From a virus, in IMG/VR virus record IMGVR_UViG_3300028364_001588: a stretch of 64,000 nt of DNA; one strand, written 5' to 3'. Under the pieces are notes generated by a model. That model was not told where the DNA came from. It saw nothing but the letters and a program-made list of their open reading frames with translations, and did not search any database. Position 1 is the stretch's first letter. Each line of letters starts with the position of its first letter. This document shows positions 37,040-64,000 of the stretch, piece after piece. Both the position numbers and the translations under genes were made by a program.

Positions 37040-37911
37040 AGACCTTGAGAAAGATTGAAGAACGTTTGCGCTCTATTAATATTGCTTCTCTCTTCTTTAA
37101 CATCAATGTTACCATCAGAAAACTGTTTCTTCCTTGTAACAAGATTGTATTGTCTATAAAGATTTCCATTGTCATCAAATATTGAGTAAACTCCAGTCTC
37201 AAGGTCTCTTGTTGAGTCTCCGTAAAGAACGTAGCTTAATGTTTTGATTGACTGGTCTACCATTTCAACTTCAACCATAACAGGGTCAAAGAAAGTGTTT
37301 GATATAAGTATTTGCTGACCTGATTTACCAAGGTCAGAACTAACAGTGTTGGTTATTAGACTTGCTTCATCTGGAGTAAGTGTAAGAAATAATTGATTTC
37401 CATTAGGGTCAATTACATAAGTAGTAGAACTTGCGTTTGTTGTGTTATTGTTTGGGTTAACACTTACAAGGTCAGAGCTTGTAATTATTCTATGAAAGTT
37501 TTTAATCTTAACACCATTATCATCAAAATACTCCATTTGGTATCCCACAAGACTTCCAGTGCTTTGAAACTGTAGCTTTGGTATGATTATACCTTTTTTA
37601 GAAATTTGTATCTCCTGGTCGTTATTTGTTATGACGAATGAACAGTCAACTATTTCTGTTTGAAATATTTTTGGCCTAATTAAAAGCAAGTAAAACCCAA
37701 GTTGGTTGAATATGCTGGCTGGAAGTCTTAATTTATATCCACCATCTCCACCAAGCATTTTTCTAAATTCATTATTAGTAACACTATTGTATATTGGTTG
37801 GAAACTTGTGTCACCAAGCGATTCTCTATTTGGAGAATAAGAATATAACACATCAACATCGTTAAAATCTGCGTCACTGAGCTTCACAGTACCATAAGTT
37901 CCTACAGCCAT
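37036..37911 (-). CDS. virion structural protein (target of homing-endonuclease insertion)
   Basis: 291-aa ORF; N-terminus MAVGTYGTVKL is duplicated at 39489-39527. Confidence 0.75.
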   Translation of the reverse strand: MAVGTYGTVKLSDADFNDVDVLYSYSPNRESLGDTSFQPIYNSVTNNEFRKMLGGDGGYKLRLPASIFNQLGFYLLLIRPKIFQTEIVDCSFVITNNDQEIQISKKGIIIPKLQFQSTGSLVGYQMEYFDDNGVKIKNFHRIITSSDLVSVNPNNNTTNASSTTYVIDPNGNQLFLTLTPDEASLITNTVSSDLGKSGQQILISNTFFDPVMVEVEMVDQSIKTLSYVLYGDSTRDLETGVYSIFDDNGNLYRQYNLVTRKKQFSDGNIDVKEERSNINRAQTFFNLSQGL

Positions 37912-38837
37912 AGTTTTTCTTTTTTATATAAATAATCGGAAATAATTTTATTAACATTTTTTAAATCAAAATAAGGTATTCTCAAAAGGTTAATACCACT
38001 TTTTTTACAATACTCTGTTTTTAATATATCTCTCTGTTTCATTTCCTTAAACTTTATTTTTGCTATAGATTTATCAAAATATAACCTCCAAGGCTCATAG
38101 TGATATTCTCCATCGTATTCTATACATATATTATAATATTGTAAATAGAAATCAAATTTAAGGTGTCTATTTGTCTTAGCGTTCCTGCAATCATCAAAAA
38201 TCTTTTGCTTCTCAAAATCTACATTATTTTTCTTTAAAAATAAAGCCACTTTTCTCTCTCCTTTGGATTCAGAACACTTTTGACAACCAGAACCCATCAG
38301 ATGTATATATGGTTTTTGCTCAAACTCCCCGTGTATTGGACACATTATATTGATGGGCTTGTCATATCTTTCATAGGCAGTTTTCGAATAATCATATTTA
38401 TTATCATGCTTTTCTGATGCATCATCAATGAAGTCTTCTGTAGTCCTGCCGACTCCAGCGCATTTTGGACAACCATTTCCATTAAGGTGTTGATTTGGTT
38501 TCTGCGCAAAATCACCATGCTTAATACAACTAATAACAACTTTAATTTTATTTCCAATATATTTCACCTTTGAGTAGTTGTATCTATCTCCATGAACGTC
38601 CTTTGCTTTTTTAACAAACTCTTTAGTATTTCCGTTTTTATTTCCAGCGCAAATTGAGCAGCCATTTTTAGCTGATACATGTCCATTTGGACTTTGTTCA
38701 AATACACCATGGTCTACACATACAATTTTAATCTTCGTTGAGTTATTTTTGTAATTCACCAAAGAGTAATCATACTTATATCCATGGATGATTTTTGCTT
38801 TTTTAATAAATTCTTCTGTTGTTAGTTTTCTTGGCAT
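37902..38837 (-). CDS. putative homing endonuclease (DUF723-like Zn-finger repeats plus Vsr/DUF559-like nuclease)
   Basis: Three YDYS...CxxHG.F.Q.P..H...GCxxC repeats; ESKGE, FDFY and IEYDGEYH. Confidence 0.82.
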   Translation of the reverse strand: MPRKLTTEEFIKKAKIIHGYKYDYSLVNYKNNSTKIKIVCVDHGVFEQSPNGHVSAKNGCSICAGNKNGNTKEFVKKAKDVHGDRYNYSKVKYIGNKIKVVISCIKHGDFAQKPNQHLNGNGCPKCAGVGRTTEDFIDDASEKHDNKYDYSKTAYERYDKPINIMCPIHGEFEQKPYIHLMGSGCQKCSESKGERKVALFLKKNNVDFEKQKIFDDCRNAKTNRHLKFDFYLQYYNICIEYDGEYHYEPWRLYFDKSIAKIKFKEMKQRDILKTEYCKKSGINLLRIPYFDLKNVNKIISDYLYKKEKLWL

Positions 38838-38924
38838 AAGCCTTTTATTATAAATACATAAGATTTTTAAAAATCAACATCAGCTAATTTTATATTGATT
38901 AAAAATATTTCCATATTTATTAAT

Positions 38925-39476
38925 ATGGACACTATCAGGCTTATAATTAGAGAAGAAATCCGCATCATATTAAACGAAGAACGTCAAGGTGGTGGCTTAA
39001 GTCAGTTTATTAAGAACTGGGGCGATTTTGTATTAGATATTTCTGATTATAGAGAACAAGATTTAGCACAGCTATATAAAGAGGGGGCCAATTCTCTAAG
39101 GTTTAATCTGGAACATAAAGAATTAATTTATCGTGGGATGTCAGTTAATGATGAATGGCTTAATCAATTTATGAAAAGTGATTCTATAAGGTTAGGTAAA
39201 TTCTGGTCTTTCGATAAAGTTGTTAGCAAAGATTTCATGCAAGCTCCAGATGTTTATGATGATGAATTTTCTAAGTTTAAAGGGAAAAATAAATTGTTTA
39301 TTATAGCTAAAGCTCCTGGGTATTTAAGTCATATTGATGTTGATGCTACGGTTGCTCATGGAATTGTCTCATCAGAAAGTGAATTAAGGCTATTAAAAGG
39401 CGCTCCACTTGACGTGGTTTCAATAAAGTTTAACGGCAAGGAGTTGAACTTCGAGAACAAGAATCTAACTTCTTAA
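38925..39476 (+). CDS. ADP-ribosyltransferase-like protein (R-S-E type) with head-protein-type N-terminus
   Basis: IYRGM...FWS...ESELRL; MDTIRLIIREEI; TATTTATT at 38914-38921. Confidence 0.55.
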   Translation: MDTIRLIIREEIRIILNEERQGGGLSQFIKNWGDFVLDISDYREQDLAQLYKEGANSLRFNLEHKELIYRGMSVNDEWLNQFMKSDSIRLGKFWSFDKVVSKDFMQAPDVYDDEFSKFKGKNKLFIIAKAPGYLSHIDVDATVAHGIVSSESELRLLKGAPLDVVSIKFNGKELNFENKNLTS

Positions 39477-39527
39477 TAAAAACACTTTATCTGCTAATTT
39501 AACTGTTCCGTAAGTTCCTACTGCCAT
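39465..39527 (-). pseudogene. orphaned original 5' end of the 37036..37911 gene
   Basis: MAVGTYGTVKLADKVFLLRS* preceded by TATTTATA at 39543-39550. Confidence 0.8.
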
Positions 39528-39571
39528 AGTCTTTTTGTTTAATATAAATAATTCATAAAAAAAATAAAACC

Positions 39572-61703: not shown

Positions 61704-61749
61704 TTTCTAAATTTATAATGTCCTGGTAAATAGTTGTAGAAATTTAAAC

Positions 61750-61780
61750 AAAAAAAAGAGGAATATCAAATTCCTCTTTC
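61750..61780 (-). terminator. intrinsic terminator
   Basis: AAAGAGGAAT-N5-ATTCCTCTTT plus T-run directly after the orphan 3' end at 61784. Confidence 0.8.
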
Positions 61781-61783
61781 ATC

Positions 61784-61822
61784 TTATTCAAATGTTGTAT
61801 ATCCTCCACGTATGAAGTGTAT
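61784..61822 (-). pseudogene. orphaned original 3' end of the A1-like gene
   Basis: IHFIRGGYTTFE* versus the current end IHFIRGCFTTLD*. Confidence 0.8.
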
Positions 61823-62748
61823 TTATATAAATAAAATTTTTACCTATTTATAAATTATGAAAACAAATAAGTTTATAGAAGAGTCGATTAAAATTCATGG
61901 AAATCGCTATAATTATAAAAACACAAAATACACAAACGCAAGAACTAAAATTAAAATAATTTGCCCAGAACACAATGAGTTTGAACAGTTGCCTGGAAAT
62001 CACAAAAGAGGTAATGGATGTCCTAAGTGTATTTATAACAAATTAACTAAAAAAGAAGTTTTAAAGCAATTTAAAAAAATACATGGAGATAAATATGATT
62101 ATTCTTTAATTGATTACAATGGAGATAATGTTAAAGTAAAAATAATTTGTTCAGAACATGGAGTATTTAAACAAGTTCCAGGAATACACAAATTAGGTAG
62201 TGGTTGCAAAAAATGCGCTGGACTTGAGAAATTAGATAATGAAAAAGTGGTGGAGCAATTTAAAGAAACACATGGAGATAAATATAATTATTCTTTAATT
62301 AACTATATTAATGCTCATACAAAAGTTAATATTATATGTCCAGAGCATGGAAGGTGGAGACAAACTCCAAATAATCATAAAAACGGAAATGGGTGTCCTA
62401 TATGTAAAGAATCTAAAGGAGAAAGAAAAATCAGAAATTTATTAAATGAAAATAAAGTCAATTTCATCTCGCAATATAAATTTAAAGATTGCAAAAATAT
62501 ATTGCAATTACCTTTCGATTTTTATTTACCAGAATATAATATATGCATTGAATACAATGGAATGCAACATTATAAACCAATTGAACACTTTGGGGGTAGA
62601 CTTGGTTTCAAAAAAAGAATTATTAATGATAATATAAAAAAAGGATATTGTGAAAAAAACAATATCCTTTTAATAACTATTAACTACAACGAAGATGTAG
62701 AGAAAAAACTTAATCTAAAGTGGTAAAACACCCTCGTATAAAGTGTAT
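61823..62748. mobile_element. homing-endonuclease cassette B (endonuclease + recoded host-gene end)
   Basis: Bounded by two versions of the same last 12 codons plus stop (29/39 nt identical). Confidence 0.75.
61857..62726 (+). CDS. putative homing endonuclease (DUF723-like Zn-finger repeats plus Vsr/DUF559-like nuclease)
   Basis: Three HG..Y.Y...IICPEH...H..G.GCxxC repeats; ESKGE, PFDFYL and IEYNGMQH; paralogue of 37902..38837. Confidence 0.82.
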   Translation: MKTNKFIEESIKIHGNRYNYKNTKYTNARTKIKIICPEHNEFEQLPGNHKRGNGCPKCIYNKLTKKEVLKQFKKIHGDKYDYSLIDYNGDNVKVKIICSEHGVFKQVPGIHKLGSGCKKCAGLEKLDNEKVVEQFKETHGDKYNYSLINYINAHTKVNIICPEHGRWRQTPNNHKNGNGCPICKESKGERKIRNLLNENKVNFISQYKFKDCKNILQLPFDFYLPEYNICIEYNGMQHYKPIEHFGGRLGFKKRIINDNIKKGYCEKNNILLITINYNEDVEKKLNLKW

Positions 62749-63999
62749 CTGCTGGGCTTTTCCATCTGAGTGAATAATTGAGTGTGATTGCAACCACGGG
62801 CTTGCTCCAATATTATATCCAACTCTAAGAATTGTAGAAGTTCCTACTTGAATTACTCCATCCATACGGCCTGGAGAGTGTGAATGTCCAATAATCATTT
62901 TTGTACTCAACTTTCTAAACTGAACAATTGACCCACGACTACCTGAAGCTCCGATGTCTCCATGTTGTCCAACTTCCCATTCATGAATTCTATGAGTGTG
63001 GCTTCTGCCCAGTGTAATGAAATTAGGAAACTTTTCGTTAATCAAATAAGGAATAACTCCATCTGGAGCATCTTCCCCAAGCAACAAAGCCGCATAGTTC
63101 ATGTAACAAAGAGAGTTTTTCATTGTTGACTCTTTTCTCCAATCAACATCTCTAAGCCATCTGTCAAGGAAATCATCATGATTACTTCTAACTATGACTG
63201 TCTTATATTCTCTGAATGCCTCAAGGCCATCAAGCATAAAATCAATCTCTTTTTTAAGGTCGTTCTTTCCAGAGATTTCCTTTTTGTATTGAGCAAACGC
63301 ATCCTTTCTGTCGTGATGACTAATAGAGTGTCCGTCAAAAACATCATGAAGAACTACCTCTTTAGGCTTCAGCTTTTTAAACAAAACATTTAAAGTTGTA
63401 TTCATTACATCTTTATCTGTTTCGCCAAAGTGAATATCCCCAAGAATAGCGCCATCAATAGACTTATTTCTCTTTATAACTGTTTTACCAATCAACTCTT
63501 CTCCTTGAAATGTTAGGCCAGGTATTAAATCAACCTCTTCATAACCACCATCAAAAGACACATTATAATAAAGGTCGTTAAAATTACCATCTTCCGTTGC
63601 AGTGACTTGCCTTGTGTAAAAAACTTCTTCATCTTTAATCTCAACAACAACAAAACCAAGGGTGTGGTGAAACTCTCCTTTCTTTCCTGCTTTTGAGTCT
63701 GTATAATTTTCTAAAGTTACAGCTCCAGTTGTCATCATCATCTTTGGTGCTGTACCTTCTAATGCAGAAACCATTTTCATTTGCATCTTAGGGTGTCCAA
63801 ATATAGATGATTCTGGTCCAGAAAAACCTTCCAATGCTGTCATTGGGTTTGTGGCTGTAGGAGAAATTTTGACATCACCACAAACAATCAATCGCTTGTG
63901 AGCATTTTGTCTTGCGGCAAATAAATAAGGCTCTACTCTTGAGTGCCATGATTCAAAATCTTTATCATCAAATACAGATGTTGGATTTTTGTATCTACC
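62710..63999 (-). CDS. T5 A1-like calcineurin-type metallophosphoesterase/nuclease, 5' end outside the window
   Basis: TTGAVT..NYT..KAG.K.EFHH, GDIH, HD, SNHD, HGD and GHSH; frame open to the window edge. Confidence 0.7.
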   Translation of the reverse strand, partial: GRYKNPTSVFDDKDFESWHSRVEPYLFAARQNAHKRLIVCGDVKISPTATNPMTALEGFSGPESSIFGHPKMQMKMVSALEGTAPKMMMTTGAVTLENYTDSKAGKKGEFHHTLGFVVVEIKDEEVFYTRQVTATEDGNFNDLYYNVSFDGGYEEVDLIPGLTFQGEELIGKTVIKRNKSIDGAILGDIHFGETDKDVMNTTLNVLFKKLKPKEVVLHDVFDGHSISHHDRKDAFAQYKKEISGKNDLKKEIDFMLDGLEAFREYKTVIVRSNHDDFLDRWLRDVDWRKESTMKNSLCYMNYAALLLGEDAPDGVIPYLINEKFPNFITLGRSHTHRIHEWEVGQHGDIGASGSRGSIVQFRKLSTKMIIGHSHSPGRMDGVIQVGTSTILRVGYNIGASPWLQSHSIIHSDGKAQQIHFIRGCFTTLD

Positions 64000-64000
64000 A

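Follow-up and report, generated by a model that had tools for sequence, protein, structure and literature searches.

A probable intron-less homing-endonuclease cassette with its own gene end and terminator in a phage A1-like gene

The DNA analysed here, referred to as the window, is a stretch of 64,000 nucleotides (nt) from a virus (IMG/VR record IMGVR_UViG_3300028364_001588). It ends within an A1-like gene on the minus strand. We studied the 3' end of this gene, where an endonuclease gene lies on the opposite strand and a second copy of the last A1 codons, here called the orphan, lies beyond it; the stretch 61823-62748 is called the A1 cassette below. The A1-like protein matches phrog_1745 ('DNA transfer protein', E 3.8e-125, residues 2-425) and is 40-45% identical to genes annotated as A1-like in Cellulophaga, Flavobacterium and Maribacter phages, its closest cultured relatives. 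By sequence, the host gene is a relative of phage T5 A1, a putative 'DNA transfer' protein. In relatives the full-length protein has 541 amino acids (aa), and a full-length copy is present in L042 (L numbers designate the sequences that were compared with the window). A Megablast search of the 3.1-kb region against phage records gave no match. The relatives suggest that the host probably belongs to the Bacteroidota and lives in marine or sediment habitats. The best cultured-phage match to the A1-like protein, in Maribacter phage Panino (PP540027.1, 23835-25063), came in two pieces that coincide with two 'DNA transfer protein' features, and the gene may be split in this phage.

A gene end in two copies

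The locus has the layout of a gene hybrid: two copies of the terminal coding part flank the endonuclease open reading frame (ORF), and the inner copy is in frame with A1. We distinguished the following features, listed from the A1 body towards the orphan and its terminator:

62749-64000, minus strand: body of the A1-like gene, running off the window end (phrog_1745 match)
62749-62766, minus strand: stretch of the A1 body identical between the window and L040, the 18 nt upstream of the insertion point
62710-62748, minus strand: working end of the A1-like gene, the apparently cassette-borne last 12 codons plus stop, IHFIRGCFTTLD (translation)
62710-62726: dual-coding overlap of 17 nt, last A1 codons on the minus strand and last endonuclease codons (NLKW and stop) on the plus strand
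62629-62671, minus strand: putative replacement terminator, antisense within the endonuclease ORF (folding and covariation)
61857-62726, plus strand: endonuclease ORF, 289 aa, convergent on the A1-like gene (ORF)
62409-62726, plus strand: C-terminal nuclease domain of the endonuclease, predicted Vsr / I-Bth0305I-like fold (structure alignment, conserved residues)
61857-62408, plus strand: N-terminal part of the endonuclease with three zinc-finger repeats (Pfam, Cys/His columns, AlphaFold model)
61823-61856, plus strand: cassette edge on the orphan side, 5' region of the endonuclease gene, with TATTTATA at 61820-61827 and 61845-61852
61784-61822, minus strand: orphan, the apparently stranded ancestral last 12 codons plus stop, IHFIRGGYTTFE (translation, duplicate scan, relatives)
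61746-61780, minus strand: predicted ancestral intrinsic terminator of the A1-like gene, now behind the orphan only (folding and relatives)

A sequence-only reading of this DNA had described the gene end, the orphan, the opposite-strand endonuclease and the 17 nt of dual coding, and all of these statements hold. It had also placed a strong terminator behind the orphan. Indeed, the orphan ends 3 nt ahead of an 11-bp hairpin (61754-61780) with a U-run, which folds at -25.3 kcal/mol (z = -6.1) and was matched in stability by none of 200 shuffles.

When the six frames of the 64-kb window were scanned at the peptide level (127,924 stretches of thirteen codons), only two stretches had BLOSUM62 scores of 25 or more, 69 for the gene end and 46 for the orphan. 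At the DNA level, too, only these two reached 26 of 39 matches, the orphan scoring 29 of 39. Since no other stretch of the window scores near the gene end and the orphan, the duplication is not a product of chance. Nor is the layout an assembly artefact, because independently assembled contigs from other samples (ENA and Logan assemblies) are 100% identical to the locus over 5,144 nt. The exact endonuclease protein was present in seven contigs.

L040, L047 and L048 also have the overlap between the two genes and an endonuclease tail of the form KKL-x-x-KW; in L044 this tail reads on into a 32-nt overlap with the A1 end. The motif TATTTATA at the opposite edge of the cassette has 29 copies in the window versus 7.7 expected from shuffles (for example at 61820, 61845, 37927, 38849 and 39543). 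It stands just upstream of both endonuclease genes of the window and of the orphan gene start of cassette A, a second locus described below. Read from the sequences, it also lies 12-25 nt ahead of the endonuclease start codon in L044, L047 and L048, and it is probably a phage promoter element.

Empty, occupied and scarred sites

If the orphan is the older of the two copies, as the sequence-only reading had proposed, relatives without the endonuclease should end like it. We compared seven such relatives (L001-L007) from viral and metagenome collections, whose A1 is 55-93% identical to that of the window. All but one end in TTFE, the exception ending in TTFK; TTFE is also the commonest ending among 120 homologous proteins (30 cases). 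The last 15 nt of the orphan are letter-identical to the A1 end in six of the seven empty sites, with L002 off by one base, and the new end differs from the empty sites in four of the five codons of this stretch. Counted by hand against L001, 31 of 39 nt matched for the orphan versus 25 of 39 for the new end. L003 represents an exact empty site, in which the A1 stop is followed by six nt and then by the terminator hairpin, the spacer and the 238-aa downstream gene as in the window. The ancestral hairpin thus stands directly behind the A1 stop in L003; in L001 and L004 it stands behind an extra small ORF. In L044 and L010, as in the window, the orphan has a terminator behind it. These comparisons support the view that the orphan and its terminator were the original end of the A1-like gene.

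In L001 (5290-5520), L004, L006 and L007, the A1 stop and the terminator are separated by a 76-aa ORF, which is absent from L003 and the window. It constitutes a second presence/absence polymorphism at the A1 junction.

Endonuclease homologues convergent to the A1 end were found in L044-L046 (71% identical to the enzyme of the window), L047 (67%), L048 (62%), L008 and L009 (58%) and L010 (56%). L029 has a broken endonuclease copy at the A1 end, and L040 is also occupied, with the same new end and endonuclease as the window. The tally for the A1 site is seven empty sites, at least six occupied lineages and one scarred allele. The orphan starts at the same Ile codon in the window, L044, L047 and L048, and at the matching INF codons in L010, in agreement with the proposed insertion between a Gln and an Ile codon.

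Between new end and orphan, 10-14 of the 39 positions differ; of the ten codons that are not identical in L044, eight encode the same residue. Where every orphan and empty site has ACA ACA, ACG ACA or ACA ACT, the four new ends in the comparison have ACC ACT or TCC ACT. Each orphan resembles the empty-site end of its own lineage, and the new ends, which are encoded opposite the conserved endonuclease tail, resemble one another. The new end of L010 belongs to a longer subtype with a DKNG-type insertion and the orphan of L010 to the short one, which makes its new end foreign to the resident gene. Judged from these sequences, the new end accompanies the endonuclease and is a foreign part of the gene it completes. 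The proposal that the element brought its own gene end is therefore upheld by the shared codons, the L010 subtype and the identity to L040, but its description as 'recoded' is not: it is better read as a foreign, cassette-borne allele. That the base changes were selected to block cleavage, or arose in place, is not supported by the sequences.

The clearest view of the cassette as a unit came from L040. Counting from 62766 downwards, the window and L040 share 374 nt free of mismatches, followed by only two mismatches to about 62208 (about 560 nt); the new end is 100% and about 540 nt of the endonuclease gene are 99.6% identical. In the adjoining A1 gene, identity is about 85% (75-92% per 60 nt). 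At the protein level, the corresponding values are 98.8% for the endonuclease and 88% for the A1 end region. The last mismatch of the flank is at 62767, 18 nt from the insertion point, and 62749-62766 would be the largest possible co-converted tract on the A1 side. The endonuclease of L040 has one zinc-finger repeat more than the three of the window. In this one clear pair, the step in identity points to a recent horizontal transfer of the cassette.

In L058 (3250-3475), the new end is of the L044 type. Behind it remain 46 nt from the 3' end of the endonuclease gene, then an orphan that has decayed and a terminator that has weakened. As the cassette is short of about 1.08 kb, we regard this allele as a deletion scar. 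According to the sequence-only reading, a GCFTTLD end in endonuclease-free relatives, or an orphan stretch beside an absent endonuclease, would speak against an insertion; neither was found in the sense intended, the new end of L058 being such a scar. From these sequences, stages of invasion, persistence and loss appear together at the A1 site.

In L057 (4126-4400), an 82%-identical A1 gene ends in cassette-like codons (HFTTFD and stop) with no endonuclease ORF behind it. The DNA downstream of A1 in L057 encodes a short stretch, DRDVNAAVNI, which may resemble the C-terminal RuvC motif of TnpB-type nucleases.

The replacement terminator and the endonuclease

About 40 nt past the new A1 stop, within the endonuclease ORF and antisense to it, we identified a 13-bp hairpin (62639-62671) with a U-run. 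It is present in seven of the seven cassettes compared at the A1 site. In their alignment 97.8% of the cells are paired, with compensatory changes in five of the 13 pairs; none of 500 shuffles reached its covariation score, and sliding the partners lowers pairing to 44-70%. No such hairpin is present at the equivalent place in the paralogue at 37902-38837 or in 18 members of the family from other sites. We infer that it ends A1 transcripts, in which case the cassette would replace the coding end and the terminator alike. This putative terminator carried by the cassette goes beyond what the sequence-only reading had noticed.

The endonuclease matches the Pfam families DUF4379 (39.3 bits, cut-off 24.5) and DUF723 (22.5 bits, cut-off 20.9), and CapR just below the cut-off (23.1 versus 24.2 bits). 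Its N-terminal module comprises three tandem zinc-finger repeats of about 62 aa each, of the treble-clef type and with invariant Cys/His columns, presumably a DNA-binding module. An alignment-based AlphaFold model with a mean confidence score (pLDDT) of 92.5 shows three helix-hairpin repeats, followed by an alpha/beta domain at the C-terminus. The stretch from residue 184 to 289 aligns to Vsr (1cw0_A; Z 10.6, root-mean-square deviation (rmsd) 2.5 Å, 98 residues) and to I-Bth0305I (3r3p_A; Z 10.3, rmsd 2.5 Å, 87 residues, 22% identity). Foldseek with the whole three-domain model gave only E ~0.03, and the domain match became clear only after re-alignment. In 30 homologues, D221, E232, H238 and D258, together with E189 and K261, show little or no variation; the pairing of the presumed catalytic residues with those of Vsr follows order and spacing, not residue-level superposition.

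Neither the protein alone nor a profile built from 30 sequences had a sequence match in the PDB, and no sequence-level match to I-Bth0305I or Vsr was found. The Pfam match to DUF559 was sub-threshold (E 0.011), and the NCBIfam search returned nothing meaningful. Among the PHROGs, the endonuclease falls in families labelled HNH, homing or intron-encoded nuclease, and in many phages the annotation of its relatives reads homing or intron-encoded nuclease. As modelled, fold and residue pattern fit the Vsr-like/EDxHD homing endonucleases (PMC2677866, PMC3239194), of which the enzyme is a candidate member. It appears to be a functional nuclease of a homing type already known.

No group I or group II intron and no intein carries the endonuclease ORF at the A1 site. 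Around the ORF, Rfam detected no intron or other RNA family, its two sub-threshold matches both falling on the terminator. Splicing is not needed, because the A1 ORF runs uninterrupted to its own stop. By eye, no pseudo-palindromic target like that of I-Bth0305I was seen around the insertion point, which says little, as the DNA-binding domains differ.

Mechanism, alternatives and related systems

Taken together, we consider it very probable that 61823-62748 is a mobile, intron-less homing-endonuclease cassette that sits inside the A1-like coding sequence, 12 codons ahead of the stop. With the same high confidence we propose that it carries substitute last 12 codons and a stop, a substitute intrinsic terminator and an opposite-strand, free-standing endonuclease gene with TATTTATA. 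The last ~90 nt of the endonuclease gene double as the A1 gene end and putative terminator.

In a mixed infection, the endonuclease would cut endonuclease-free A1 alleles near the Gln and Ile codons. The occupied allele would then template repair of the break, with the A1 body as one arm and the orphan, its terminator and the downstream gene as the other. The cassette would be copied in, and the recipient's own end would turn into a new orphan. Because the cassette-borne end differs at 10-14 of its 39 nt, occupied alleles would be protected from cutting, and recombination between the two end copies might also be curbed. We infer the position of the cut and the immunity through changed bases from the sequences; I-Bth0305I cuts right beside its insertion site and tolerates single substitutions (PMC3239194).

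Several observations weigh against a mobile cassette. The comparison with L040 is one pair and covers the A1 side only, as the L040 contig stops within the endonuclease gene, and the step in identity could come from ordinary recombination that swapped the A1 body. In distant pairs, the endonuclease and A1 show a similar degree of divergence (68-80% each); therefore much of the history may be co-descent from one old insertion followed by losses, that is, mostly vertical descent with occasional transfer. The expected contrast of C-termini with and without the endonuclease was borne out by the empty sites, which mostly end in TTFE, but not by L041: this 68%-identical, endonuclease-free relative natively ends in GEFTTLD, written in different codons. 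Because L041 natively ends in TTLD, the last two residues of the window alone are no sign of recoding.

Vertical descent could also be the whole story. An intergenic endonuclease gene would have landed once, by illegitimate recombination that duplicated 39 nt, and descendants would have inherited this one old accident or, in some cases, lost it; there would be neither site-specific homing nor an adaptive terminus replacement. The similar divergence of endonuclease and A1 in distant pairs fits such a history, every orphan seen starts at the same codon as a single founding event predicts, and the scar of L058 is a loss. We nevertheless judge it unlikely. It does not account for a cassette that is 100% identical between the window and L040 against flanks of about 85%, for orphans that resemble the empty ends of their own lineages while the new ends resemble each other, or for the different length subtypes of new end and orphan in L010. 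Moreover, the endonuclease ORF and its presumed catalytic residues are intact across 56-100% identity, and the same layout recurs with paralogues at other genes.

Another explanation holds that co-infecting phages exchanged the A1 body or an upstream module and that the endonuclease merely marks the boundary. Nuclease genes have been reported at boundaries of phage genetic exchange (PMC10448857), and the identity step falls within 18 nt of the cassette edge with only one side visible. This leaves the duplicated end, the shared codon signature and the embedded replacement terminator unexplained, and it is compatible with homing, since nuclease-induced breaks would give rise to boundaries of this kind; as an account of its own we hold it to be very improbable. 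That the nuclease is domesticated and serves the phage, by excluding competitors or by degrading host DNA together with A1, with its position reflecting co-regulation, would suit an intact ORF long kept at one site and tightly packed with the A1 end and terminator, but this is hardly credible given that most close relatives are without it, that it is deleted in L058, that the family is dispersed over introns and unrelated genes, and that there is no evidence for a role beyond homing.

The closest counterparts of the proposed cassette are the mORF 'gene hybrids' of fungal mitochondria, described for atp6, atp9, cox2 and nad3 of Glomus sp. (PMC3630166) and, in 1994 work as cited there, for atp6 of Allomyces macrogynus. 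In both settings an endonuclease ORF lies near the 3' end of a gene and is accompanied by a foreign copy of the C-terminal coding part, in frame with that gene. The native version of this part is left behind downstream and is closer to element-free relatives than the inserted copy. Unlike these mitochondrial elements, the A1 cassette is found in a phage and encodes a Vsr-like nuclease with zinc-finger repeats. The mORF endonuclease is on the strand of its host gene and partly in phase with it, whereas the A1 endonuclease is on the opposite strand with a 17-nt overlap. Furthermore, the A1 cassette replaces only 12 codons and embeds an antisense terminator, and its mobility is deduced from sequence.

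EDxHD or Vsr-like homing endonucleases, first described as a family in PMC2677866 and with I-Bth0305I as prototype (PMC3239194), combine a Vsr-fold C-terminal domain and conserved Asp/Glu/His/Asp residues with an N-terminal DNA-binding part in a multidomain protein, a build that the A1-site enzyme appears to share. They occur in phage introns, in fractured genes and free-standing, and the A1-site enzyme is also from a phage. What differs is its N-terminal part, which consists of three CapR/DUF723-type zinc fingers. Published EDxHD members reside in group I introns, between split-intein halves or in a gene that they split, none with a duplicated gene end. CapR/DUF723 tandem zinc-finger repeats, whose number changes by recombination, are known from the T5orf172 homing endonucleases of ICP1 (PMC10448857), and the repeat number is also variable here (three in the window, one more in L040). 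However, the catalytic domain of the ICP1 enzymes is T5orf172/GIY-YIG-like and not Vsr-like, and terminus replacement is not described for them.

The Seg and Mob enzymes of phage T4, such as SegF, are free-standing, cut the allele that lacks them and are spread by repair, the resident allele being protected by sequence differences. Their genes lie between genes and convert flanking markers, whereas the A1 cassette lies inside coding sequence and has a prosthetic end and terminator. In the literature covered, which excludes most subscription journals, our searches turned up no report of a homing endonuclease that replaces a gene terminus in a phage. The terminus-replacement layout is thus known from fungal mitochondria; the phage setting, the convergent gene and the embedded terminator set the A1 cassette apart.

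It is generally held that homing endonucleases either stay intergenic or depend on an intron or intein if they are to enter essential coding sequence harmlessly. The A1 locus would represent a third route in phages, in which the element brings a spare gene end and a spare terminator. Tentatively, terminus replacement may even offer phage homing endonucleases a general way into coding sequence that requires neither intron nor intein. The A1 cassette would then perhaps be its most compact form, with ~90 nt encoding the endonuclease C-terminus plus, on the other strand, the prosthetic gene end and terminator. As one stretch encodes all three, the nuclease would be inseparable from the repair carried along, and the module may have been kept at one site through ~45% protein divergence of its host gene, a view we hold with similar reserve.

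The comparative record is unusually complete, with empty sites, diverged occupied sites, one apparent recent transfer and one scar. For annotation, short orphan gene ends beside nuclease genes may be footprints of terminus replacement and not noise, and for phage evolution, a gene end can be foreign while the gene body is native. In addition, both a putative natural target (the empty site) and a candidate natural immune allele are now defined for a little-studied family of Vsr-like/zinc-finger nucleases.

The sequence-only reading had claimed that the same endonuclease family also replaces 5' gene ends, at cassette A (37902-39550). Checked in part, this holds, with an orphan start and an overlap both found. 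A paralogous endonuclease (37902-38837, minus strand; 43% identical) lies upstream of the gene at 37911 and overlaps its start; in endonuclease-free relatives, this gene follows directly behind a TATTTATA-type upstream region. The orphan start is in two pieces on the minus strand, 39489-39527 (13 codons) and 38867-38890 (KLADVDF and stop). A 12-nt repeat is common to both pieces, and an ORF on the opposite strand (38895-39476) lies between them, which gives the impression that another element had entered this orphan.

As had been suggested, we also looked for translated duplications around 26 family members, covering 450 nt on each side, with mixed success. The A1 cassette was marginal (score 46, reached by five of 150 null pairs) and cassette A was missed, its orphan being 1.6 kb away; the scan alone would not have established the A1 finding. 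Standing out were L013, L014 and L016, where two versions of a gene start of ~20 codons (2402-2461 and 3654-3713 in L013) flank another family member. In L013 the peptide score was 65 versus a null maximum of 50, and the arrangement looks like a 5'-end replacement. The gene downstream in L013 encodes a KxDG ligase-like motif and is apparently frameshifted in the contig. In L017, L023 and L027, direct repeats of ~48-84 nt flank the endonuclease gene, in L017 together with one passenger ORF. These repeats scored 55-77 against the same null maximum, are for the most part apparently located outside called ORFs and might represent regulatory regions that were duplicated.

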